Notes under the pieces: generated by a model
Database searches by the model: none
What the model was told of the DNA's origin: nothing
The model's input: the letters and a program-made list of their open reading frames with translations, nothing else
Source: Bacteroidales bacterium
GTDB taxonomy: Bacteria; Bacteroidota; Bacteroidia; Bacteroidales; JAGOPY01
Length of the DNA: 41,865 nt
Assembly: GCA_046484945.1 (NCBI GenBank)
Contig: JAWOHY010000198.1
Location: forward strand, 1 to 41,865
Reading direction: 5' to 3'
Program-made: the position numbers and the translations under genes
Shown here: in pieces, positions 12,083-40,891 of the stretch
How the letters are laid out: each line of letters opens with the position of its first letter
Numbering within the stretch: the stretch's first letter is position 1

Positions 12083-13882
12083 ATGAACCGCTCAGTCCCC
12101 GTCATAATCCTGCTTCTTTTCAGCGTTCTTTTCACTTACGGGCAGTTCCGGGTGGTGGATGCAACAAGGATGCAGGTTATGCCTGGTCGGCAATTCATCC
12201 CGGATGTGGAGGGCAAAGTGCTGGTCAGCGATGCGGTCTATGAGCAGATAGAACAGTATGAAACGGGCCAGGTTCCCACGGTTTATCCGCTCTGGCCGGT
12301 ATCAAGGACCGGAACCGTGGAAGAGGGAGGTGTCTGGGGCAATTGTGACAACGATCCGGACCTGGAGATCATTTACGCAGTGGGTAACCAGGTATATGCT
12401 TTTAACAGCAATGGCTCCCTGGTAAGCGGCTGGCCCCGAACGCTCGATTACCCAACCGACGGTGCCCCTGCTTTCGGAGATATCGATGGTGATGGTTACG
12501 GTGAAATCGTGGTAACCACCCACCAGCCCGCCACTTTTGCCGTTGGTTCTATTTATGCTTTCGAAATCAACGGGGCAAACGTGCAGGGCTTTCCCGTCAG
12601 CACTGTCGGCGGCGCGCTCCGCACACCGGTCCTGGCTGACCTTGACGGCGACGGCGCCCTGGAGATCATCGTCACCATCAGGAAACATCCGGAAGGGTTT
12701 ATCCATGTTTACAGGGGCAATGGCACCATGTTCCCCGGCTGGCCCCAGCGGATGGATTATGTACCAGGCTCAGCCGCCGCCGCGGGCGATATCACCGGAA
12801 ACGGTGTCCCGGAGGTTATTGCCCAATCTTACTACGGGCTCCATGCCTTTACCGCCGATGGAATGCTGATGCCCGGTTTCCCCTATTACCCCGGCACCAA
12901 CAGGGTTTTTTCATATTCGACTCCCGTACTGGCCGATATCAACCAGAACGGCCTCCGGGAGATCATCTGCGGCGACCATGCACTGGATTCCGGCAATGGC
13001 GCCATTCATGTTGTCAAAAACGATGGCACAGCCTTTCCGGGCTGGCCCAAATTCACCAACGCCTGGGTTTACGGCCCGCCTTCCGTGGGGGATATCGACG
13101 GTGACGGCCTGCTCGATATTGCCGTCGGCGACCAAATGATCTCCATTACACCGCAAAATAAAGTCTACGCCTGGACCGCTGTTACAAGCAACCCCCTGCC
13201 CGGCTTTCCCATCACCGGCATTTGGGCTGTGAATTCCCAGATCATGCTGGCCGACCTCGATGGCGACGGGATGATCGAACTGATTTTCGATGATAACACC
13301 TCCGTCGGAAAATACCAGGGATACAACCATGATGGCACACCCATGGAGGGATGGCCCCTGTACCTCAACGGCAGTACTTTTTACATCTCCCCGATGATCT
13401 TCGACGTCAAACTCGACGGGATGATGGACATCTCCGGCGCCGGTTATGTACAGGCCACGAATACGACCAATATCTACTTTTGGAATGCCCACGTTGCAAT
13501 GAACAGCGAACTGGCCATACTGCCCATACTGCAGTATAACACAAGGCACAGTGGCGTTTACGGAGATTATCTCATGGTAGGGTCCCCTGAGATCCGACCC
13601 GAACCGGAAGACACCTGGGTTATTTACCCGAATCCGGCCACCACCCGGCTGAATATCAACAGAGCAAATCACGAAGTGAATGGAAATGCCGATGCTGAAT
13701 GGCATATCCATGTTTTCAGCACTGCCGGGAAACTAGTTTATCAAAATTTCATCCCTGGAGGTAATACCTCTCTGGTCGTCCAAACCTCCAGCCTGTCCCC
13801 CGGGGTTTACTGGCTTGTGATCAGAACTGACGGAAAGGCTGCGTATGTGAAGAAATTCATTGTGTTACATCATTCGGGATAA
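12083..13882 (+). CDS. FG-GAP/VCBS repeat protein with T9SS CTD
   Basis: Repeated GWP...P...(G/A)DIDGDG..EI units; signal peptide; CTD IYPNP...GVYWL...KKFIV. Confidence 0.85.
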   Translation: MNRSVPVIILLLFSVLFTYGQFRVVDATRMQVMPGRQFIPDVEGKVLVSDAVYEQIEQYETGQVPTVYPLWPVSRTGTVEEGGVWGNCDNDPDLEIIYAVGNQVYAFNSNGSLVSGWPRTLDYPTDGAPAFGDIDGDGYGEIVVTTHQPATFAVGSIYAFEINGANVQGFPVSTVGGALRTPVLADLDGDGALEIIVTIRKHPEGFIHVYRGNGTMFPGWPQRMDYVPGSAAAAGDITGNGVPEVIAQSYYGLHAFTADGMLMPGFPYYPGTNRVFSYSTPVLADINQNGLREIICGDHALDSGNGAIHVVKNDGTAFPGWPKFTNAWVYGPPSVGDIDGDGLLDIAVGDQMISITPQNKVYAWTAVTSNPLPGFPITGIWAVNSQIMLADLDGDGMIELIFDDNTSVGKYQGYNHDGTPMEGWPLYLNGSTFYISPMIFDVKLDGMMDISGAGYVQATNTTNIYFWNAHVAMNSELAILPILQYNTRHSGVYGDYLMVGSPEIRPEPEDTWVIYPNPATTRLNINRANHEVNGNADAEWHIHVFSTAGKLVYQNFIPGGNTSLVVQTSSLSPGVYWLVIRTDGKAAYVKKFIVLHHSG

Positions 13883-13898
13883 AACAATCATCAAACTG

Positions 13899-16800
13899 AT
13901 GAAAAAACTGATTCTGCTACCATGGCTGTTTATGACCATCGGCATGATCTCCCAGGACATGCCTGATGCTTACCGGCTGTATGTTGAGAAGCACCCGCAA
14001 GGGCCCTCCCTGAACAAATGGGACTCCATCCGCCTGGTGAACGTGCCCGAAAAAACCCTTCCCGGTAACCTGAAAAACAGAACGCTTCCGCCCATCGTCG
14101 ATAACTCCGCATTGCCTTACCTCCGTCCGGTATTTAACCAGGAAGGCCCCAGTTGCGGGCAGGCGGCCATGATCGGATATAATTTTACATACGAAATAAA
14201 TTGCCTTCGGGATCTTTCTTCCCATGATTCAAGCAACCAATACCCCACCCACTTCACATTCAATTTCATGAATGGTGGTAACGGATGGTACGGTGTCAGC
14301 TACTTTCACAGCATAGAAATGCTGAAAGCAACCGGTTGCATGACTGTGCCAGAATACGGCGGGATGCACGATGATGGCCGCAGGTGGATAGACGGTTATG
14401 ATGTATATCATAGCGGCATGCACAACCGGATCAAAGACTTCTACAGTATTCACACCGGGACAACGGATGGCATCCTGGCGCTGAAAAACTGGCTGTACGA
14501 CCATATGGGAGATCAAGCGCACGGCGGTGTGGCCAGCTTCTATGCCAATGTCCCCTGGAATGCCAAAATATTGAACGATACCACACCCGAAGGCGGTAAA
14601 CATGTGATGACAGCCTGGTACCCGGCGGCTACCCATGCCATGACCATTATCGGTTATAACGACTCGATACGGTATGATTACAACGGCGACGGACTGTATA
14701 CCAACCACATCGATCTGAATGGCGACGGGATCATCGATGCCCGCGACTGGGAGATCGGTGGGGTGAAATTCATCAACAGCCATGGCATCGATGCACAGGA
14801 CAGCGGTTATTGCTATATGATGTATAAATGCCTGGCCGAAACCTTTGAAAACGGCGGCGTATGGAACCAGGCGGTACATATCCTTTACCCTTATGAGGAG
14901 TTCTCACCTTTAATGACGTACAAGGTCACCATCAAACATGATTACCGGGAAAAAGTGAAAGTGATGGCCGGGGTGTCGTCGGATACAAGCGACTTAATTC
15001 CCAGGTGGATCATGGACTTTCCCATCATCAATTACCAGGGGGGGGATCACTACATGCAGGGCCAGGACACCGCAGAATACCTGAAATACCTGGAATTCGG
15101 ACTGGATATCAGCCCATTGCTCACACATGTCAGCCCCGGGAATCCTGCAAAGTTTTTCCTGATTGTCGATGAGAATGATCCCTATGGCGAAGGTGACGGC
15201 GAAATCATCTCCTTCTTCCTGATCGATTATACCAGCGGAATGGTGGAAGTCATTTCTGATGAAGTACCGCTGACGCTGCTCAACCATAACCGAACAACTG
15301 CAGCGCTCGTTCATACGCCGGTTTTTGATAAAGTAGCCGTTACCACGGAGGTGCTGCCGGCATTCACAACGGATGACCCCTATCAATTCCAGCTCAATGC
15401 CACCGGTGGCACACCTGCGTATGACTGGACATTTCGGCATTATTACCGGATGGAACAGTCACAGACTTCATTTCCCATGATCATGGACAACCAGGTCCTG
15501 CCTGATACTTCAGGCGACTCACTTGTAGCGATCCCATTAGGCTTTGAATTTCCCTTCTTTGGAAAAAAATATGATACCGTCTATATTCACATTGATGGCC
15601 ATATTCAATTTGACAAAACACAATTGCCCTGGCCTTACCTGTTTGATTACGACCTGCATCTGCGGAGCAATCGTATCATCACCCCGATGACGCACCAAAA
15701 CTTCACCATTTTCGATGATGAGGATGGGGCGTGGTATGAAACAGACTCCATCTCAGCTACCTTCCGGTGGAAATTGTCATGGAGCCCAAAACCCATGTCC
15801 ACAGAGTTTAATTTTGCCGTTAAGCTCTGGCATGACGGCAAAACCGAATTTATATACGGCCCGGCCACCCTGGATGGATTGAAATGGATAGGTGGTATTT
15901 CGGCAGGAAATATGCTGGATTACTTTGAGTCGCCTTTATACAGGTCACATGCCATTTCCCCGGGGCACCGGGTTGCCTTCCTGCCGGCCCGCTTTCCGCA
16001 AGGACTGTCACTCTCGGATGATGGTTGGCTTGAAGCAGAAATGCTGGATGAAACTTACATCTATGACCTGTCGGTGAGGGTGACCGATAAAAACCGTGTC
16101 GCTGATGTAAAAGACTTCCAGTTGTCTTCCGGCCCCCTGGCTTGGTTTACCGTCCATTCTCAGGGCGACAGCCTGATCCATTACGGAGATTCCGTTATCC
16201 TGGATCTCAAATTACGGAATCATGGCGCCCAAACACTCGGGGAACTGATAATGAACATTTCCAGCCATGACGACTTCATCATCTTGCAGGATAGCAGTGT
16301 TGTCATAGGTGACCTGTTGCCCGGGGAGGAGATCATCATCTCTGGTGCTTTTTCTTTTCTGGTATCTGTGGAAGTGCCCGATCAGCATGATCTTTCTCTT
16401 TCGGCGGTATTGCTGTCCGACAGCAGTTCATGGCAAAAAGCGCTTCTTTTCAAAGCCCACGCCCCGGATCTCCGGATCAGGCAGGTAATAGTGGATGATG
16501 GGGATAACAACATCCTGGATCCGGGAGAAACAGCGGATTTCCTGGTCACGCTGCAAAATATGGGAACCGCCGGTATCCATGAAGTGATCGGGCAACTTGT
16601 ATCTCTCAATCCCGAATTGCAGGTATTGGGAAACCCGGTGCAGTCATATGGAACTTTTACAAAAGGCGCCACGATTTCCCGTTCATTCACCCTGTATGCC
16701 GAGGAATCAATACCCTGTGGATTCCCTGCAAAGCTTGTCTTCACCACCGGATCAGAACCCGGGCTTTCTTTCTCTGATACCCTTGAGATAAGGATCGGCA

Positions 16801-17732
16801 AGACGCCCGTCCTGCTGATCGATCTGGATCCAAACACTCATTCGGGCCCCGTGATCCGTGACATGCTGGATGATATGAATATTATCAATGTCTATAGCAC
16901 ATTCATCCCTGAAGGCATTGACCAATTCCAGTCTCTCTTCATCAGCCTGGGATACCACGGTTCGAACCATGTCCTGACATGGCATGAAGGCAGGGTGCTG
17001 GCAGATTACCTTGATGGCGGGGGCTATATTTACATGGAAGGGAAAAAGACCTGGAAAGACGACCCACAGACCCCTGTGCACAGCCGCTTCAACATTACCC
17101 CTTTGAATGGCGTTACCCTTTGCGATACCCTTTCCGGATCGGAAAATACATTTACCCATGGTATCCGTTTACTGAACAATGCCGAATTTCCGTTCAGTTT
17201 TTATTACCTGGACCCTATCTCACCCGCCTATGCCGTTCTGCACAATGGCTTACAGGGCAGGCCCTGCGCCGTTGCCCATGATGCAGGCTTTTTTAAAACT
17301 ATCGGATCGCTCTTTGAACTTGGTACACTCGGCGATCTCCCCCCTTCTACCACCTCAGAATTGCTGCAGCGATACCTGGATTTCTTCGGCATCTATGTCA
17401 ACCCAACCCGTATCGATGAAATCACCAGAGAAGCAAACGATTTTTCCATCAGCATTTACCCAAATCCTGCGAAACAGATAATTAATGTCAGCTTAGATTT
17501 AACGGCTAACGGCAAACGGCTAACGGCAAACGGCAAACGGCAAACGGCAAACGGGCAAACCTCGCTCATCATCACCGACCTCTTCGGCCGGACTCTGATG
17601 CAAATTCAAAATGTACAAAGTTTCCCCTTCCCGATTAATGTTTCATCGATCCCTGACGGATTACATATTATCCAGTTGATAACCACAGACGGGCAATCGG
17701 CTTCGGCAAAATTTATTAAGACTTCAGATTAG
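13899..17732 (+). CDS. Papain-like (C1) cysteine peptidase, multidomain, T9SS CTD
   Basis: NQEGPSCG (oxyanion Gln and catalytic Cys), HAMTIIGY (His), FINSHG (Asn); DDGDNNILDPGE Ig-like domain; IYPNP CTD. ATG 13899 gives a signal peptide. Confidence 0.82.
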   Translation: MKKLILLPWLFMTIGMISQDMPDAYRLYVEKHPQGPSLNKWDSIRLVNVPEKTLPGNLKNRTLPPIVDNSALPYLRPVFNQEGPSCGQAAMIGYNFTYEINCLRDLSSHDSSNQYPTHFTFNFMNGGNGWYGVSYFHSIEMLKATGCMTVPEYGGMHDDGRRWIDGYDVYHSGMHNRIKDFYSIHTGTTDGILALKNWLYDHMGDQAHGGVASFYANVPWNAKILNDTTPEGGKHVMTAWYPAATHAMTIIGYNDSIRYDYNGDGLYTNHIDLNGDGIIDARDWEIGGVKFINSHGIDAQDSGYCYMMYKCLAETFENGGVWNQAVHILYPYEEFSPLMTYKVTIKHDYREKVKVMAGVSSDTSDLIPRWIMDFPIINYQGGDHYMQGQDTAEYLKYLEFGLDISPLLTHVSPGNPAKFFLIVDENDPYGEGDGEIISFFLIDYTSGMVEVISDEVPLTLLNHNRTTAALVHTPVFDKVAVTTEVLPAFTTDDPYQFQLNATGGTPAYDWTFRHYYRMEQSQTSFPMIMDNQVLPDTSGDSLVAIPLGFEFPFFGKKYDTVYIHIDGHIQFDKTQLPWPYLFDYDLHLRSNRIITPMTHQNFTIFDDEDGAWYETDSISATFRWKLSWSPKPMSTEFNFAVKLWHDGKTEFIYGPATLDGLKWIGGISAGNMLDYFESPLYRSHAISPGHRVAFLPARFPQGLSLSDDGWLEAEMLDETYIYDLSVRVTDKNRVADVKDFQLSSGPLAWFTVHSQGDSLIHYGDSVILDLKLRNHGAQTLGELIMNISSHDDFIILQDSSVVIGDLLPGEEIIISGAFSFLVSVEVPDQHDLSLSAVLLSDSSSWQKALLFKAHAPDLRIRQVIVDDGDNNILDPGETADFLVTLQNMGTAGIHEVIGQLVSLNPELQVLGNPVQSYGTFTKGATISRSFTLYAEESIPCGFPAKLVFTTGSEPGLSFSDTLEIRIGKTPVLLIDLDPNTHSGPVIRDMLDDMNIINVYSTFIPEGIDQFQSLFISLGYHGSNHVLTWHEGRVLADYLDGGGYIYMEGKKTWKDDPQTPVHSRFNITPLNGVTLCDTLSGSENTFTHGIRLLNNAEFPFSFYYLDPISPAYAVLHNGLQGRPCAVAHDAGFFKTIGSLFELGTLGDLPPSTTSELLQRYLDFFGIYVNPTRIDEITREANDFSISIYPNPAKQIINVSLDLTANGKRLTANGKRQTANGQTSLIITDLFGRTLMQIQNVQSFPFPINVSSIPDGLHIIQLITTDGQSASAKFIKTSD
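17500..17555 (+). repeat. Eight (T/A)AACGGC heptamer units inside the C1 peptidase CTD coding region
   Basis: taacggc taacggc aaacggc taacggc aaacggc aaacggc aaacggc aaacggg; translates as LTANGKRLTANGKRQTANG. Confidence 0.95.
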
Positions 17733-19757: not shown

Positions 19758-21755
19758 ATGAGAAACATCATACCTTTCCTGGTTATCATCTTCCTGATCC
19801 CATTATTGATCTCCCAAAAACCGGTCGGAAAAAATGAAAAACCTTATGTCGACGGTGAGATCATGGTGAAGATGCGTTCAGATATTTCACCGGTGCAGCA
19901 GGAAGAAATATTCCAGGCTTTCCTGAACGAATACCAGTATCTCGAAATCGAGCCCATCCGGAAATTATCCAATAGGCTGAATATACACCTGTTACGATTT
20001 AAAACCGGAATATTTAACGATGAAAGGGTCTTGCAGGAAATTAAAAACCACCCGTATGTGGAACTTGCCCAGTTCAACCATTTCATCGAACACCGCCAGC
20101 TGATCCCTTCGGATCAGTATTTCGACCTGCAATGGAACATGCACAATACCGGCCAGACAGGCGGCACTGACGATGCCGACATCGACGGACCGGAGGCATG
20201 GGAAATCGGCACTTCAGGGATCACAGCCACCGGCGACACGATTGTGATCGCCGTTATCGACGATGGATTTGACCTGACCCATGAAGACCTTCGTTTCTGG
20301 AAAAACTATCTGGAGATTCCCGGCAACGGTATCGACGATGACAGCAATGGGTATATTGATGATTACCATGGCTGGAATGTTTATTCCAATTCCGGGAATA
20401 TCATCGAAAGGGACCATGGTACGCATGTCACCGGGATTGCGGCGGCTAAAGGAAATAATGATAAAGGCGTGACAGGGGTGAACTGGAATGTCAGGGTAAT
20501 GCCGGTGGTTGGGTCAGGCACTGTGGAGTCGTACGTAGTGGCAGCTTACGCTTATGTGCTCGAGATGCGTGCCCGGTATAATGAAAGCGATGGCACAAAA
20601 GGGGCTTTCATTGCTTCGACCAATGCATCCTTTGGAGTTAATATGGGGCAGCCGGAAGATTTCCCTATCTGGGGAATGATGTATGATTCGCTGGGTGTGC
20701 TGGGTGTGCTGAGCGCCGGGGCAACGGCAAACGCCAACTGGAACATCGATGAAGTCGGCGATATCCCGACAGCATTCCCGAGCGAATTCCTGATCTCCGT
20801 CACAAATACGGATAATAACGACAACCTGAGTACTTTTGCCGGTTACGGCCTCACGACCATTGATCTGGGGGCGCCGGGCACCCAGGTCTATTCAACCCGA
20901 CAAGGCAATGCATATGGTAATAAAACGGGCACTTCGATGGCATCGCCGCACGTGGCAGGGGCCATTGCATATATGTTCTCCATTGCAGATACGGCTTTTA
21001 TGGAAGCCTATCACAACGATCCGGCCGGTATGGCGCTGGTCATCAAGCAGTACATTCTGGATGGCACCGACCCTCTTCCCACTTTGCTAGGCAAATCGGT
21101 TACCGGTGGCAGGCTTAATATTTACAACGCAGCCATGCGGATGCTCTATCCCGATATCATCTTCAGCCCGATGAGTATCCTGAAGCAGCTGCCTCCGGAT
21201 GAACAGGAAAGTGAGATGCTTTCGTTTACCAACAACACCGGCTCCACAATGAATTACTATATCACTTATCCCGATACACTGGAATGGATCAGCCTTAGCG
21301 GAACCCTTACCGGCACGCTGCCGGCCGGTGGAAATGGCAATATCACCGTTCATTTCGATTCGGAAGGAATTATATCAGACTCACTTTTAACGTACCTGAC
21401 ATTCATCTATGGAATCGACAGCCTGTTCAATGTGCCGGTGCATTTGTTTGTTAATCCGTTTGTGGGAGGCAGGGAATATGAGGGCATGGAGGCATGGGGG
21501 CAAGGAGGCATGGCATTATGGCCGAACCCGGCGAGAGAAGTGTTAAGGTTTAAGTTTTCAGGTTTAAGTTCGGGCAGTAATTATACTCTGAGCATAGTCA
21601 ACTCTTCCGGAACGATCCTGCAGGAAATCACGATTACAGGCGAACAGGCCGGATTACAACTAAATACCGGATCGTACCGTGCCGGAAGTTACTTCGTCAT
21701 CCTTAAACAGGGGAATAAGATGATCGATTCAAAAAAATTCATCATCCTCAAATAA
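19758..21755 (+). CDS. S8 subtilisin-like serine peptidase with T9SS CTD
   Basis: Catalytic triad AVIDDG, DHGTHVTG, GTSMASPHVAG; N-terminal propeptide; LWPNP...GSYFV...KKFIILK. Confidence 0.92.
   Translation: MRNIIPFLVIIFLIPLLISQKPVGKNEKPYVDGEIMVKMRSDISPVQQEEIFQAFLNEYQYLEIEPIRKLSNRLNIHLLRFKTGIFNDERVLQEIKNHPYVELAQFNHFIEHRQLIPSDQYFDLQWNMHNTGQTGGTDDADIDGPEAWEIGTSGITATGDTIVIAVIDDGFDLTHEDLRFWKNYLEIPGNGIDDDSNGYIDDYHGWNVYSNSGNIIERDHGTHVTGIAAAKGNNDKGVTGVNWNVRVMPVVGSGTVESYVVAAYAYVLEMRARYNESDGTKGAFIASTNASFGVNMGQPEDFPIWGMMYDSLGVLGVLSAGATANANWNIDEVGDIPTAFPSEFLISVTNTDNNDNLSTFAGYGLTTIDLGAPGTQVYSTRQGNAYGNKTGTSMASPHVAGAIAYMFSIADTAFMEAYHNDPAGMALVIKQYILDGTDPLPTLLGKSVTGGRLNIYNAAMRMLYPDIIFSPMSILKQLPPDEQESEMLSFTNNTGSTMNYYITYPDTLEWISLSGTLTGTLPAGGNGNITVHFDSEGIISDSLLTYLTFIYGIDSLFNVPVHLFVNPFVGGREYEGMEAWGQGGMALWPNPAREVLRFKFSGLSSGSNYTLSIVNSSGTILQEITITGEQAGLQLNTGSYRAGSYFVILKQGNKMIDSKKFIILK
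21483..21514 (+). repeat. Four GGCATGGA-like octamers in the S8 linker before the CTD
   Basis: ggcatgga ggcatggg ggcaagga ggcatggc; encodes GMEAWGQGGMA. Confidence 0.8.
21539..21574 (+). repeat. GGTTTAA-family arm copy inside the S8 CTD
   Basis: agtgttaaggtttaagttttcaggtttaagttcggg, 32/36 identical to 28614-28649. Confidence 0.85.
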
Positions 21756-21761
21756 CAAAAT

Positions 21762-21810
21762 CCCCAACTTAAACCTTAAACCTCAAACCTTAAACCTAAA
21801 ACTAAACACT
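21762..21810 (-). repeat. GGTTTAA heptamer array between the convergent S8 and thiolase genes
   Basis: Plus strand reads ccccaacttaaaccttaaacctcaaaccttaaacctaaaactaaacact; overlaps the thiolase stop codon. Confidence 0.9.
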
Positions 21811-23065: not shown

Positions 23066-23107
23066 TTGTAATTCGTTGTAATTCGTTGTAATTCGTTGTA
23101 ATTACAA
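23066..23107. repeat. TTGTAATTCG 10-mer x3.8 ending in a short palindrome
   Basis: ttgtaattcg x3 followed by ttgtaattacaa. Confidence 0.9.
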
Positions 23108-25275: not shown

Positions 25276-25338
25276 AGAAGATAGAAGTCAGAAGTCAGTA
25301 GACAGAAGACAAAAAACACGAAACAAAAAACACGAAAC
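25276..25338 (+). repeat. Composite heptamer array: AGAAGTC-type then AAAAAAC/ACGAAAC-type
   Basis: agaagat agaagtc agaagtc agtagac agaagac aaaaaac acgaaac aaaaaac acgaaac. Confidence 0.85.
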
Positions 25339-25370
25339 AAACTTTTTCATCATATTCCAAACTTTATATG

Positions 25371-28205: not shown

Positions 28206-28238
28206 GAATTTTGAATTTTGAATTTTGAATTTTGAATT
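28206..28238 (+). repeat. GAATTTT heptamer x4.7
   Basis: gaatttt x4 plus gaatt, directly after the receptor stop codon. Confidence 0.92.
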
Positions 28239-28246
28239 AATATGAG

Positions 28247-28609
28247 ATGAAAACAGAATTTTCAATAGTTGCTGTAATGATGATGATATCTCTGATGATC
28301 AGCGGTCCTGTGTTTGCACAGGAAAAGAAGAAGAATTACGAAGAAGTGGAAATCAAGACTTCGGCGGTATGTGGCATGTGCGAAGAACGGATCGAAGGCA
28401 ATATCGCCTTTGAAAGGGGAGTCAAAAAAGTGGACCTTGATGATGAGACCAAGGTGGTTACTATCGGTTATGATCCACGTAAAACCGACCCGGACAAGCT
28501 GCGCAAAGCCATCTCAAAACTGGGCTATGATGCCGATGATGTGGAAGCCGACCAGGTAGCACATGATAAGCTGCCGCAATGCTGCCAGAAGGGGAACGAT
28601 CCGCATTGA
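28247..28609 (+). CDS. Secreted heavy-metal-associated (HMA) domain protein
   Basis: Signal peptide; CGMC metal-binding motif; C-terminal LPQCC. Confidence 0.88.
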   Translation: MKTEFSIVAVMMMISLMISGPVFAQEKKKNYEEVEIKTSAVCGMCEERIEGNIAFERGVKKVDLDDETKVVTIGYDPRKTDPDKLRKAISKLGYDADDVEADQVAHDKLPQCCQKGNDPH

Positions 28610-28613
28610 TCTC

Positions 28614-28964
28614 AGTGTTGAGGTTTAGGGTTTAAGGTTTAAGTTCGGGAATTTTTTTAACAGAGTGGGTATATTTTTCATTTTTCTGGATTAATAGATA
28701 AAATCCATGAATTATGAAAGAAAGTATTGTTGGTGGTAAAGCATATTTTTATACAATGAGTATTATTCCGCTCTATCAAAAAATGTTACAACTTTCAAGA
28801 CCTTCTCAAAGAGATCGATGAAATCATTAAAATGCTAACAAAAATTGTTAAAACCACAAAATCTCAAGAAATAAAATAATAGCCCGAACCTAAACCTTAA
28901 CCCTTAAACCTCAACACTTTAAAATATTCCCCCACTTAAACCTTAAACCTTAAACCTTAAACCT
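28614..28964. mobile_element. Repeat-flanked four-helix-bundle cassette 1 (defective)
   Basis: 36-bp inverted arms 28614-28649 and 28883-28918 (33/36) made of GGTTTAA units; extra (CTTAAAC)n array about 28935-28964; AT-rich interior carrying a gene remnant. Mobility is inferred, not shown. Confidence 0.65.
28714..28879 (+). pseudogene. Internally deleted four-helix-bundle (23S rRNA IVP family) gene
   Basis: ATG 28714 gives MKESIVGGKAYFYTMSIIPLYQKM (family N-terminus). The +1 frame gives FQDLLKEIDEIIKMLTKIVKTTKSQEIK* (family C-terminus). The central Q..RS..S..AN..E core is missing. Confidence 0.75.
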
Positions 28965-28965
28965 A

Positions 28966-29670
28966 TCATGCAAGCCCTTTTACCCTCGGAATGCCGGGGA
29001 TAAAGTCCTTCAGGTAAAACGGTTCGAAGTAGGCCGTGTTTTCGAATTGCTGCCGGCGAAACTTCTCTTCCGCCAGGGGGATCATGAATTTGGCGGAAGG
29101 GCGGAAATCATCCAGGAAGACAGCATTGGGATGGTTTTGCAGCAGGGGCTTGCATTTTGCCGCACCATCGCCTGCAAAAACGACCGTATGATCCCTGAGT
29201 TCTTCCGTGAAGGATTCTTCCGTAATGATCTCGGCGAGGATTTCCCGGACGGGATGGAGTCCCTGGTCGTAAAGGGCACTGTAAACTTCCATCCGTTTCG
29301 CATCGATCATCGGGCAGAAGAGGGATGGAGTCCCTGTTGGCAGGGACTCCATCCCTGCCATCCCCGCCGCCATAGCCTGTAGCGTACCAATGGCAATCAA
29401 CGGTTTATCCAGCGCATAGCAAATACCTTTGGCGGTGGAAACACCAATCCGCAAACCGGTATAGGACCCCGGCCCCATGCTGACCGATACGGCGTCGAGT
29501 GAGATAAATGGCCAGCCGCTTTCACGCATCATCTCTTCGATAAAAACGGTGACCACTGAGGAATGAATATTTTTCTGACTGCTTTCACGCAGAAATTTGA
29601 GCTGTCCTCTCTCCGACAGGGCTAGCGAGCAGACCTGGGTGGCTGTTTCAATATGTAAGATTCGGGGCAA
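28966..29670 (-). CDS. tsaB: tRNA threonylcarbamoyladenosine biosynthesis protein TsaB
   Basis: ILHIETATQVCS, GPGSYTGLRIG, PMIDAKRMEVY, FEPFYLKDF. Confidence 0.95.
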   Translation of the reverse strand: MPRILHIETATQVCSLALSERGQLKFLRESSQKNIHSSVVTVFIEEMMRESGWPFISLDAVSVSMGPGSYTGLRIGVSTAKGICYALDKPLIAIGTLQAMAAGMAGMESLPTGTPSLFCPMIDAKRMEVYSALYDQGLHPVREILAEIITEESFTEELRDHTVVFAGDGAAKCKPLLQNHPNAVFLDDFRPSAKFMIPLAEEKFRRQQFENTAYFEPFYLKDFIPGIPRVKGLA

Positions 29671-33574: not shown

Positions 33575-34837
33575 ATGGCATCAAAGCGCTTCATCAAAAA
33601 CCTGGTCAAGTACCTCATTATTCCCGTCGGGTTTGCCATCGGGATGACGATGGCCATTGTCTGGTCATCCGGGAATATCGTGCATGCCCCCCGACTCAAT
33701 CCGAAATACGCTTTCCCGGTCGATAGCCTCTTTATCGATCTCGACAGGATCGCCATGGATAAAAAAGGGTACATGATCGACAGTGTCTTCACTGCGCTGC
33801 AATTGCGGGCGGGGTTCAATGGTACGGTGCTGTATTCCGAAAAGGGAAGGTTGGTATTTAAAAAGGCTTACGGCTACGAAGATTTTAAAACCAGGAAAAG
33901 GCTTACCACCCAATCGGCATTTCAGCTGGCTTCGGTATCGAAAATGTTCACAGCCGCTGCCATTATGATCCTCCGGGAGGAAGGGTTGCTGAACTATGAC
34001 GATTCACTTGAGCTTTATATCCCTGGCTTACCCTATCCGGGAGTCACGATACGGCACCTGCTGATCCACCGTTCCGGAATACCTGATTATATGTATTTTT
34101 CAGATGAACACTGGGGCCAGAAAAGGCCGATCAGTAACGATGACATGATTTGGATCATGCAGAAAAAAAAACCGCCGCGTTTCTTTTCAGCCGGAAACGG
34201 CTTCGATTATTGCAACTCCAATTATGCCCTGCTGGCATCGGTGGTGGAACATATCACAGGGAAAGCGTTTGGGGATTTTCTCCGGGAAAGGATCTTCGAT
34301 CCGCTAGACATGCATGATTCTTTTCTCTACCGCCTGGAACCCGGTGAGTCGGTCCCCAGGGCAGTGCCGGTGGGTGTCCCCGGGCATCGCACCTACCGCG
34401 GCAGGACCATCGTGGAACAAAATTTCTATCAAAACGGTGTAGTGGGCGATAAAGGGATCTATTCAACCGTTGAAGATCTTTTCAAATTCGATCAGGCGCT
34501 TTACAATGGTCTCCTGGTAAGTGAAGAAACCCTGATGGAGGCTTTTACCCCCGGCAGCCCCAGAAGGTCGAGGCACAGGGATAACTATGGTTTTGGCTGG
34601 CGCCTGAAGGCGGGACGGTCTAACACAATATACCATTATGGCTGGTGGAAAGGATTCCGCACCTATTTCATCCGCGATATGGAACAGGAAAAAACGATCA
34701 TCGTATTGACAAACACAACCCGTCTGCTTTCTTCTGGCAGACTATATGGGATCCTCGACAATCAACAGTTCGAACTCGGTCCCATTTCCGCCATCGATCC
34801 CAAAGGCAGCAGGAAGTCGTTAGTCGTCAGTCGTTAG
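33575..34837 (+). CDS. Serine hydrolase, beta-lactamase class C/PBP-like
   Basis: SVSK (SxxK), YCN, LLIHRSG, YHYGWW; TM helix after ATG 33575; promoter-like TATTTTTG at 33555-33562. Confidence 0.88.
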   Translation: MASKRFIKNLVKYLIIPVGFAIGMTMAIVWSSGNIVHAPRLNPKYAFPVDSLFIDLDRIAMDKKGYMIDSVFTALQLRAGFNGTVLYSEKGRLVFKKAYGYEDFKTRKRLTTQSAFQLASVSKMFTAAAIMILREEGLLNYDDSLELYIPGLPYPGVTIRHLLIHRSGIPDYMYFSDEHWGQKRPISNDDMIWIMQKKKPPRFFSAGNGFDYCNSNYALLASVVEHITGKAFGDFLRERIFDPLDMHDSFLYRLEPGESVPRAVPVGVPGHRTYRGRTIVEQNFYQNGVVGDKGIYSTVEDLFKFDQALYNGLLVSEETLMEAFTPGSPRRSRHRDNYGFGWRLKAGRSNTIYHYGWWKGFRTYFIRDMEQEKTIIVLTNTTRLLSSGRLYGILDNQQFELGPISAIDPKGSRKSLVVSR

Positions 34838-34877
34838 TCATCAAGAAACAAAAAACAAGAAACAAGAAACAAGAAAC
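34815..34877 (+). repeat. Composite heptamer array: AGTCGTT-type x4 then AAGAAAC-type x5
   Basis: agtcgtt agtcgtc agtcgtt agtcatc aagaaac aaaaaac aagaaac aagaaac aagaaac. Confidence 0.9.
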
Positions 34878-38581: not shown

Positions 38582-38623
38582 GTCGTTGGCCGTTGGCCGT
38601 TTGCCGTTTGCCGTTTACCGTTA
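38582..38623 (-). repeat. Six AAACGGC-family heptamers (GCCGTTT on the plus strand)
   Basis: gtcgttg gccgttg gccgttt gccgttt gccgttt accgtta. Confidence 0.9.
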
Positions 38624-39206: not shown

Positions 39207-39269
39207 CAAAAACAAAAAACACGAAACAACAAACACGAAACAATAAACACGAAACAAGAAACCAGATAC
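39207..39269 (+). repeat. ACGAAAC/AAnAAAC alternating heptamer array
   Basis: caaaaac aaaaaac acgaaac aacaaac acgaaac aataaac acgaaac aagaaac cagatac. Confidence 0.88.
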
Positions 39270-40233: not shown

Positions 40234-40891
40234 AATGTTGTATGTTGTATGTTGTATGTATTATTTAATAAGGATTTGATAATAAGACAATTATCATAAA
40301 CTTAATACATATCACATAATACATACCACATACAACATCTTTCAGTCGTCTTTACGCCGCATCACTATTTCTTCTGGCGGTGTTTCTTGTTGCCATAAAA
40401 ATAGCGATCAACTCCTTGCATTCCACTAATTGGTTTTGCAGAACTACTGGGTCTTTACACAATTTCGCTTCCTCAACAACCTCAAGATTAACCTCAGTTT
40501 CTTTTAGCTCTTTCACAACAAGTCCGATCTTATGAATAAAATCTTTTCTTGTTTCTGCCATTTGTGCTTCGCCATAATTTAAAGCTGCTGAAGTTGAGGA
40601 CCTTACCATTTGCATGTAAAGATGCCTGGATGCAAAAACGGGTTTAAGAATTTGGTCAATAGAAACTATCCTGGCAGAAAACTGCACAAGCCTTTTTTGT
40701 AATTGCGTCTTCATACTATTCTTTCTCTGTTAATCAGGAAAGAAGCTGAAATATACCCGGTGATTTTGAAAAAAAATTAGGACTGTGGTATGCATGATGT
40801 GATATGTAGTATGTGATATGTAGTATGTGGTATTTATTAAGTATTTTAAATCCTTATAAAATACTACATACCACATACTACATACAACATT
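40234..40891. mobile_element. Repeat-flanked four-helix-bundle cassette 2 (intact gene)
   Basis: Nested inverted arms of TATGTnG heptamers: outer 40234-40277/40848-40891 (40/44) and inner 40300-40338/40804-40842 (34/39). Mobility is inferred, not shown. Confidence 0.7.
40352..40714 (-). CDS. Four-helix-bundle protein (23S rRNA intervening-sequence protein/Avd-like family)
   Basis: 120 aa; QMVRSSTSAALNYGEAQ...SRKDF-like TRKDFIHK...KELKET family signature. Confidence 0.92.
   Translation of the reverse strand: MKTQLQKRLVQFSARIVSIDQILKPVFASRHLYMQMVRSSTSAALNYGEAQMAETRKDFIHKIGLVVKELKETEVNLEVVEEAKLCKDPVVLQNQLVECKELIAIFMATRNTARRNSDAA

Follow-up and report, generated by a model that had tools for sequence, protein, structure and literature searches.

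Between two convergent protein genes lies a short stretch of DNA in which inverted heptamer arrays enclose what appear to be pieces of a gene. What is this element, how did it reach its site, and does it bear on the origin of similar arrays elsewhere in the genome? The DNA analyzed is a 41.9-kb contig of genome G000, a metagenome assembly of 273 contigs that is 94.6% complete; this whole contig is called the window, and coordinates given without a contig name refer to it. The element occupies the 356-nt gap between a forward-strand open reading frame (ORF) for a heavy-metal-associated (HMA) domain and reverse-strand tsaB. An earlier account made from the letters alone (the sequence-only reading) described it as an internally deleted four-helix cassette of the PF05635 family with both inverted arms retained, and as a "MITE-like" intermediate between an intact cassette and an orphan array.

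Two puzzles meet at this locus. Intervening sequence (IVS) elements insert at helix 25 or helix 45 of 23S rRNA, are transcribed within the pre-rRNA, and are excised by RNase III. What PF05635, named "23S rRNA intervening sequence protein," does, and where the IVS came from and how they move, have been questions since the 1990s according to the accessible text of PMC4990558, which cites Ralph & McClelland 1993 and Afseth 1995 on the IVS and regards such elements as selfish and sporadically distributed. As described there, the 23S IVS of Coxiella burnetii is 428 nt long, with a 28-bp terminal inverted-repeat stem cut by RNase III and an ORF in the loop; upstream of the ORF, which is in reductive evolution, stands the heptamer GACAGAT in two to three tandem copies, variable among strains (PMC4990558). 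The second puzzle is the excess of period-7 arrays in some bacteria, unexplained in the accessible portions of two reports (PMC4679880, PMC4692102). The locus and its genome tie the two together, in that a PF05635 gene sits amid inverted heptamer arrays, outside rRNA, switching sites and passing through several stages of deletion. They also supply testable material: intact and deleted copies with same-type arms in one genome, and empty, hairpin-only, and footprint alleles in relatives.

RESULTS

The element is an internally deleted copy of an intact cassette

A PF05635 profile scan of G000 returned 20 matches. The paralogue relevant here, at C137:11814-12173, is a 120-codon (360-nt) gene whose 119-residue protein begins MKESIVGGKAYYY and scores 90.7 bits against PF05635 (cut-off 33.8) and 103.6 bits against TIGR02436 (cut-off 24). 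It is bounded by GGTTTAA-type arms like those of the window element, and the search for an intact GGTTTAA-armed copy in the same genome thus ended on contig C137. The full cassette there consists of a left arm, a promoter/leader module, the 120-codon four-helix-bundle gene, and a right arm. An AlphaFold model of the C137 protein (18 aligned sequences, pLDDT 92.4) places helices at residues 5-26, 31-51, 56-83, and 92-118, and the family profile of the paralogue matches PDB 2rld (E = 1.3e-37).

Table 1. Features of the element and its two neighbors in the window
Feature	Coordinates	Strand	Description
HMA (heavy-metal-associated) domain ORF, 120 aa	28247..28609	+	PF00403, 43.8 bits; 5' neighbor of the element
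Left arm, 36 nt	28614..28649	+	AGTGTTG end, three GGTTTAA-type heptamers, inner clamp GTTCGGG; inverted pair with right arm
Promoter/leader-like module kept from the cassette	28650..28713	+	Alignment with C137 paralogue
N-terminal gene fragment, codons 1-26, helix 1	28714..28791	+	23/26 residues identical to C137 residues 1-26, E = 3e-16
Residual 35-codon ORF	28714..28821	+	26 native codons, 9 out-of-frame codons, TGA; sole ORF within the gap
Deletion joint	28791..28792	+	C137:11891-12083 (193 nt) replaced by 2 nt; matched blocks 28644-28790 and 28793-28892
C-terminal gene fragment, codons 91-118 plus TAA stop, helix 4	28793..28879	+	Frame differs from that of the start codon
Right arm, 36 nt	28883..28918	-	Reverse complement of left arm; inverted pair
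Third array, outer and right-arm-like	28929..28964	-	Clamp-like CCCCCAC plus about four AAACCTT units, without terminal CAACACT
tsaB, convergent 3' neighbor	28966..29670	-	PF00814; TIGR03725, 152.3 bits (cut-off 69.3); stop codon 28966-28968

The window element begins 4 nt after the TGA stop of the HMA ORF and measures 305 nt from arm to arm (28614-28918; Table 1). It follows the C137 cassette on both sides of a single break: DNA identity is 95% between 28614-28790 and C137:11714-11890 and 94% between 28793-28922 and C137:12084-12213, and the translation of 28787-28876 agrees with C137 residues 89-118 at 25 of 30 positions (E = 4e-16). The left and right arms match those on C137 at 35/36 and 34/36 positions, respectively. 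They are no better conserved than the interior (94-95%), so that their retention may reflect youth and not selection. When recomputed, both 36-nt arms proved to have been kept and to be complementary at 33 of 36 positions (28614-28649 versus 28883-28918), as the sequence-only reading had claimed. The remnant is therefore a 35-codon stub and a loop of ~230 nt closed by a 36-bp stem. Folding of 28606-28968 as RNA gave a minimum free energy (MFE) of -89 kcal/mol; shuffles averaged -56.8 (z = -7.07), and 0 of 100 were as stable. The arm stem was present in both the MFE and the centroid fold.

The net deletion is 191 nt, or 53% of the 360-nt gene. Since 191 mod 3 is 2, the reading frame is shifted (28714 mod 3 = 1; 28877 mod 3 = 2). 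In the alignment with C137, no repeat or microhomology longer than 1 nt was found at the break. From the modeled helix limits and the span of the deletion, helices 1 and 4 were kept and helices 2 and 3 are gone; with only helix 1 in frame, helix 4 out of frame, and the two central helices deleted, the gene is a family pseudogene, and any protein made from it would be non-functional. The cassette deletion reported by the sequence-only reading was thus borne out against C137. Its assignment of the fragments to PF05635 held by way of the paralogue (90.7 bits) and not by direct search: a Pfam search with the fragments by themselves was empty at E ≤ 10, and the remnant was missed when G000 was scanned with PF05635 at E ≤ 1. 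Membership follows from the 23/26 and 25/30 residue identities to the C137 protein. We conclude that window positions 28614-28918 are a dead, internally deleted copy of a PF05635/TIGR02436 gene cassette.

This conclusion presupposes that the contig is correctly assembled. If the locus were really intact or empty, the 191-nt gap or the whole insert would have arisen from mis-joined reads of the C137 paralogue. The deletion is carried by one contig of a 273-contig metagenome assembly, the paralogue is 94-95% identical and shares exact stretches as long as about 57 nt, and patterns spanning the HMA-stop/left-arm junction and the deletion joint gave 0 hits in metagenome contigs, among which records of the genome itself were perhaps excluded. 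A search of sequencing runs for words of the stretch listed nine DNA runs: one contained 0.51 of the words and is possibly the source sample, seven contained 0.08-0.13, and a second run of that same sample contained almost none. No RNA run was listed. However, the window copy has substitutions of its own relative to C137 both to the left (9 in 177 nt) and to the right (8 in 130 nt) of the joint, and at about 5-6% these mean that the sequence does not come from reads of the C137 paralogue. The element also lies in the middle of the 41.9-kb contig with unique flanks on each side, and the break has no repeat that a graph assembler could collapse. As the k-mers of a contig derive from reads, the joint should itself have been sequenced. 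We therefore regard an assembly artefact as very improbable.

Upstream of the gene fragments, the promoter/leader-like module retains the boxes GGGTATATTTTT at 28667-28678 and CTGGATTAA at 28686-28694, the latter with a single C-to-T change relative to the paralogue; one base of the conserved CCGGATTAA box of the module is altered in the window copy. A sigma-70 consensus scan returned 8 promoter-like sites (shuffle mean, 2.0) and a terminator consensus scan found none in the element, but these scans were not relied on because Bacteroidota promoters deviate from the sigma-70 consensus. Given that module and start codon were kept and that the ORF is open over 35 codons, the ORF or the ~230-nt loop RNA might have gained a new role, acting as a small protein or sRNA. 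Such a gain is extremely improbable in our view. The whole element is absent from the closest relative (G004), and there is no second copy. Judged by eye, most differences from the paralogue alter an amino acid: 3 of the 4 N-terminal changes do so, as do at least 5 changes in the C-terminal fragment. The altered base in the CCGGATTAA box also counts against it, and an Rfam search of the window at the gathering threshold came back empty.

An array probably preceded the cassette at the HMA-tsaB junction

The third array, which the sequence-only reading placed against the tsaB stop codon, indeed ends 1 nt from it. It is 84% identical to the right arm (TRF period 7, 4.3 copies, 100% matches). When the junction was compared across relatives, the sites differed. 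In G004, the closest congener (85-88% nucleotide identity here), the junction is empty, with stop codons 3 nt apart and no array. G008 holds an empty hairpin of the same GGTTTAA arm type, beginning 4 nt past the HMA stop and abutting the tsaB stop. An array of a different unit occupies the junction in G007, an additional membrane-protein gene that in G005, G006, and G003 (with other-unit arrays in G005 and G003 too), and an unrelated short sequence that in G001 and G010. On the G008 hairpin, the end of the loop and the right arm align with the region of the third array (28919-28967); with arms this repetitive, the alignment accommodates orthology and paralogy alike.

The window copy and its paralogue are 94-95% identical, compared with 85-90% for genes of G000 and their orthologues in G004, and the copy therefore probably arrived after the two genomes split. 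Taking these alignments together, at the HMA-tsaB junction an array probably preceded the cassette. The third array is best read as the right arm of a hairpin that already resided there, or as an outer nested arm whose left partner was lost.

Most PF05635 genes of G000 lie within inverted short-unit arrays

To place the element among its relatives, we aligned the upstream and downstream flanks of PF05635 loci in G000 that had flanks of at least 100 nt (n = 18; two loci at contig ends were omitted), with a score of at least 40 as the threshold. Inverted flanks reached the threshold at 16 of 18 loci, compared with 3 of 18 in direct alignment and 0 of 18 after shuffling; the two loci below it were those on C143 (score 38) and C64 (score 17). 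Array units differ from cassette to cassette; most are 7 nt long, and others are 8, 10, 11, or 14 nt. Across the 3.08 Mb of G000, TRF detected 923 tandem arrays, 453 of them of period 7 and falling into 85 unit classes. A PF05635 gene lies inside each of the 13 inverted pairs of same-unit arrays that are spaced 200-601 nt apart, whereas pairs at least 682 nt apart enclose ordinary genes.

The association extends beyond this genome. In a scan of one genome per species, the C137 protein had 518 relatives; the 80 best (49-83% identity) come from Bacteroidales, Flavobacteriales, Balneolaceae, Ignavibacteria, Nitrospira, Chloroflexia, cyanobacteria, and candidate-phyla lineages. Among the 67 of these best 80 that had full flanks, 27 showed inverted flanks at a score of at least 40, compared with 4 in direct orientation and 0 when shuffled, and the best arm period was 7 in 60 of the 67.

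Cargo-less dispersed arrays are far more numerous than cassettes in G000. The GGTTTAA family comprises about 32 loci by blastn-short. Sorted by eye, they include 2 with cargo, one that encloses a T9SS C-terminal domain, about 6 hairpins (loops of 17-81 nt), and otherwise solo or doubled arms. A subgroup of GGTTTAA loci, also recognized by eye, is joined to another repeat. In the window itself, heptamer arrays also lie within T9SS C-terminal domains (17501-17560 and 21483-21574).

These proportions suggest an account in which arrays came first: the heptamer hairpins would be host-level or self-propagating palindromes (REP-like, possibly with a 3'-end or terminator role) and the gene a frequent passenger. 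Orphan arrays would then not be decayed cassettes, and the window element would say nothing about the origin of arrays. The 923 arrays, with 85 unit classes among the 453 of period 7, stand against about 20 PF05635 genes, only 2 of about 32 GGTTTAA loci carry cargo, and arrays often begin within 10 nt of stop codons. In the accessible text of PMC4692102, 70-75 convergent pairs of GGGAATC arrays in Xanthomonas are likewise described without gene cargo. Against this account, period-7 inverted arms also flank relatives of the gene in other phyla, and the rRNA IVS of Coxiella has tandem heptamers beside its ORF (PMC4990558, accessible text). Further evidence on both sides comes from the comparison of sites.

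Cassettes turn over among sites and decay in stages

Orthologues of the C137 gene (60-84% amino acid identity) with GGTTTAA-type arms occur in G008, G002, G007, and G003, and their neighbor genes differ among the four. At the site orthologous to that on C137, the gene is absent from all five relatives examined: there is nothing in G007, a 15-nt arm footprint in G004, a degenerate left arm in G008, a left arm plus a small hairpin in G002, and a hairpin of a different unit in G003. Arms can be nested or unequal in number; three pairs are nested in the G008 cassette and two in the G007 cassette, C137 combines two left arms with a single right arm, and at the window site a single left arm faces two right ones. 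A second decayed cassette in G000 (C54:21372-21760) is 5' truncated and retains both arms and the 3' half of the gene. The loops of 6 cargo-less hairpins were also compared with the cargo: 4 matched no better than shuffles, and 2 were weakly cargo-like, each equaled by 5 of 200 shuffles.

The series present thus comprises intact, internally deleted, 5'-truncated, hairpin, solo-arm, and footprint states, and its direction is directly shown only for the deletions. For the proposal that the element is an intermediate between cassette and orphan array, this outcome is mixed. The decay states are there (window, C54, the G004 footprint, hairpins, and solo arms), but the descent of arrays from cassettes was not supported: the G008 junction holds an empty hairpin, only 2 of 6 loops are even weakly cargo-like, and at the window site the array was probably first.

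The same comparisons bear on the priority of arrays. That the HMA-tsaB junction holds different-unit arrays in different species, and that empty hairpins occupy sites in G008 and G002 that carry cargo in G000, is as expected if arrays exist independently of the gene. On the other side, arm type accompanies the gene lineage to different loci in five species, and cargo deletion is directly seen twice (window and C54) and a footprint once (G004). On balance, we consider a general priority of arrays over cassettes possible but doubtful.

Tests of movement and of arm function

The promoter/leader module, GGGTATATTTT ... CCGGATTAA, precedes most PF05635 genes of G000, between the left arm and the start codon. 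It is also found upstream of unrelated genes, including radC-like, nth-like, and recJ-like genes, and is therefore a general promoter/leader of the organism and not specific to cassettes. Transcripts started at the module would carry right arms only, and the long stem would be possible only in read-through RNA or in DNA. Across 44 cassettes (2,170 arm positions), mismatches comprised 41 of the G-U type and 53 of the A-C type in addition to 165 transversions (P = 0.26). There is no sense-strand G-U excess, and the substitution pattern therefore gives an RNA-stem function no support; it fits copying or recombination of the arms at the DNA level.

No transposase is encoded in the window element or in its parent cassette, whose only product is the 120-aa four-helix protein. 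The genome has 4 matches to PF01797 (Y1 transposase), with the strong ones on C63 and C215; beside both of these genes stand short GC-rich REP-like hairpins of their own instead of heptamer arrays. The sole array within 1.5 kb of a PF01797 match was a TCCGGAA array near C215, and no link between arrays and Y1 genes was found.

These results weigh on the "MITE-like" label, which fitted the element in shape only. Like a MITE, the element is short (305 nt) and non-coding apart from the 35-codon stub, has terminal inverted repeats, and derives by internal deletion from a longer element of which an intact relative persists in G000. A true MITE would be a non-autonomous form still mobilized in trans by the protein of the intact cassette or by a host enzyme, and we judge this quite improbable. 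Unlike a MITE, the element has a parent without a transposase, and the deleted form is single-copy in G000, where cargo-bearing matches to it occur only at C137; the 23-mer across the joint had 0 hits in metagenome contigs (own-genome records perhaps excluded). No consistent target-site duplication was seen. The window element is flanked by TCTC on the left and TTTA on the right, and none was found at the G008 cassette. C137 has TTAA on both sides, which is palindromic with the ends and may merely extend the palindrome. The sole encoded protein is the four-helix bundle, for which we know of no transposase activity.

DISCUSSION

The best explanation as a whole, to which we assign a probability of roughly 85%, is that the element is a decayed copy of an IVS-like cassette that arrived at a resident hairpin after the split from the nearest relative and is now inert. 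The copy was likely made from a C137-type cassette after that split, and it likely entered a hairpin of the same arm family that was already present at the HMA-tsaB junction, by insertion or by recombination with it. The third array would then likely be the surviving outer right arm of that hairpin, or an arm of a nested pair as seen in congeners. At present, the element would persist as an inert palindromic spacer between convergent genes, although a long stem in read-through RNA, or a cruciform or hairpin in DNA, would still be open to it, as to the many cargo-less hairpins of its family. As an event, it is an ordinary pseudogene remnant, yet it is also a clean, datable intermediate of a little-described and apparently widespread class. 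Members of that class may be relatives of the rRNA IVS that reside in intergenic DNA, switch sites across species, and decay by deletion toward empty hairpins, solo arrays, and footprints. Homology-guided copying among same-unit arrays is our preferred guess at the route of movement, and the most economical one.

The closest known counterparts are the 23S rRNA IVS of Coxiella burnetii and Leptospira. In both settings, an ORF of the PF05635 family lies in an inverted-repeat loop (stem of 28 bp in Coxiella and 36 bp here), tandem heptamers stand beside the ORF, and the ORF decays. In contrast to the rRNA IVS, the window element lies between two protein genes and not in rRNA, its arms are themselves arrays that are sometimes nested or multiplied, a promoter-like module is present, and G000 has dozens of scattered arms of this family without cargo. 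The 23S genes of G007, G005, and G002, the relatives covered by this comparison (G000 and G008 have no assembled 23S), contain no IVS and are uninterrupted, at 2,911-2,925 nt over model positions 1-2925. In the openly accessible literature, we found no account of heptamer-array arms around PF05635 cassettes outside rRNA, and the accessible text of a Flavobacterium columnare paper lists the gene name only (PMC5524665).

Other repeat systems share single traits with the element. REP/BIME repeats associated with RAYT (Y1) proteins are, like the heptamer arrays, numerous palindromic intergenic repeats at gene ends; in contrast, the Y1 genes of G000 (C63 and C215) carry GC-rich hairpins of their own. 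Avd, the accessory protein of diversity-generating retroelements, belongs to the same four-helix-bundle superfamily, and the C137 protein matches NF033474 weakly at 20.3 bits. That score is below the cut-off of 80, however, the locus has no template/variable repeat pair, and no reverse transcriptase was found among the 20 window ORFs scanned.

More speculatively, PF05635 cassettes with short-unit arms could be cross-phylum, IVS-like mobile elements that reside mainly outside rRNA, with the protein recognizing its own arm arrays and promoting copying into same-unit arrays, with insertion and decay seeding intergenic heptamer arrays by the hundred in genomes such as G000, and with the rRNA IVS as a special case. 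We put this forward as a tentative and rather unlikely generalization. If it were true, the window element would be a snapshot of the pathway from cassette to array.

Dispersed heptamer arrays are also known from cyanobacteria, as the STRR heptamers. The accessible text of two reports describes others, namely, GGGAATC in Xanthomonas (70-75 convergent pairs; PMC4692102) and TAACTGA in Beggiatoaceae, Cyanobacteria, and Bacteroidetes (PMC4679880). As far as these texts go, the arrays of G000 resemble the published ones in their many intergenic period-7 copies, in convergent pairs capable of forming hairpins, and in the position of some copies a few nucleotides from start or stop codons. They differ in that one unit dominates each genome there, whereas G000 has 85 heptamer classes, and in that the accessible descriptions mention no gene cargo or link to PF05635, whereas here cassette-specific units enclose PF05635 genes.

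Short-unit arrays within sorting domains and intergenic gaps

Units of the cassettes, in which a PF05635 four-helix-bundle gene lies between inverted arrays (arms) of mostly heptamer units, also occur inside and beside genes of other kinds (see the table below). One subtilase encoded in the window has a T9SS C-terminal sorting domain that lies between two GGTTTAA-family arms, the left of which shares 33/36 identity with the arm of the intact paralogue on contig C137 of the same genome (G000). The left arm and the GCATGGRG array that precedes it are both translated in frame as part of the subtilase, and the right arm lies 3′ of its stop, adjoining the stop of a convergent thiolase gene. This architecture is also kept in the orthologue of the nearest congener, G004 (91% mean column identity). 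An AACGGCA array lying in frame within the Por_Secre_tail domain of a 1,290-amino-acid open reading frame (ORF) is a second instance of a heptamer array in a T9SS sorting domain.

Three cargo-less arrays in the window share their units with cassettes sited elsewhere in G000, and one of them, the GAATTTT array, takes up the entire gap between the stop of a TonB-dependent receptor gene and the start codon of the HMA ORF. Throughout the second half of the window, most intergenic gaps contain further heptamer arrays. Across the whole genome, 923 arrays were counted, with a period of 7 in 453.

Coordinates of arrays, cassettes and associated repeats
Feature	Location	Description
Subtilase ORF	window 19758-21755	Peptidase_S8 + Por_Secre_tail
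Arrays around sorting domain, left	window 21483-21574	GGTTTAA-family arm and preceding GCATGGRG array
Arrays around sorting domain, right	window 21766-21802	GGTTTAA family
AACGGCA array	window 17501-17560	8.4 copies, 60 nt; in ORF 13860-17732
Cargo-less array	window 28206-28238	GAATTTT, C113 cassette unit
Cargo-less array	window 23066-23103	TTGTAATTCG, C175 cassette unit
Cargo-less array	window 21483-21513	GCATGGGG, C203 cassette unit
Other heptamer arrays	window 25276-25341, 34815-34877, 38584-38622, 39210-39266	AGAAGAC, AAACACG, AGTCGTT, CAAGAAA, CGTTTGC, AAACAAG
Intact PF05635 cassette	window 40235-40890	gene 40352-40714, minus strand; 38.4 bits
Decayed cassette	G000 C54:21372-21760	GAGTTYT arms
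Arm remnant	G004 L125 (C167) ~305-350	
~50-nt module	G000 C148:2870-2922; C178:9366-9416; C78:16559-16594; C184:6129-6168; C106:239-280; C171:4887-4933; C53:8600-8653	
Y1 transposase genes	G000 C63:20300-21323; C215:1-900	PF01797
Hairpin-core repeat	L038 (C137 locus) ~2000-2170	

Intact and decayed cassettes

The window also carries an intact cassette, whose arms are nested and inverted, with units ATGTTGT and GTATGTR; both of its flanks are hairpins in themselves (inverted score 96, direct score 69). A second decayed cassette, on C54, retains both arms but lacks the promoter along with the gene's 5′ half; what is left is a 56-codon ORF that aligns with the 3′ half of the gene on C183. At the G004 site orthologous to that of the C137 cassette, just the first 15 nt of an arm are left, fused directly to the downstream flank; the remnant is a deletion footprint.

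Associated module and unrelated repeats

A conserved module of ~50 nt (in order, a T-run, AACAG, CCGGGTATATTTT, 8 to 10 nt, CCGGATTAA and an A-rich stretch) was found 5′ of PF05635 genes and of unrelated genes, including radC-like, nth-like and recJ-like genes. Within this lineage, the module might act as a promoter/leader that is either strong or mobile.

Tandemly repeated short GC-rich palindromes flank the Y1 transposase genes on C63 and C215; together, these constitute classical REP/RAYT-like sets, separate from the heptamer arrays. A further short repeat with a hairpin core lies immediately 5′ of the C137 cassette. Because this repeat recurs on ~30 G004 contigs (75 to 92% identity, query positions ~798-969), it represents a separate dispersed element family.
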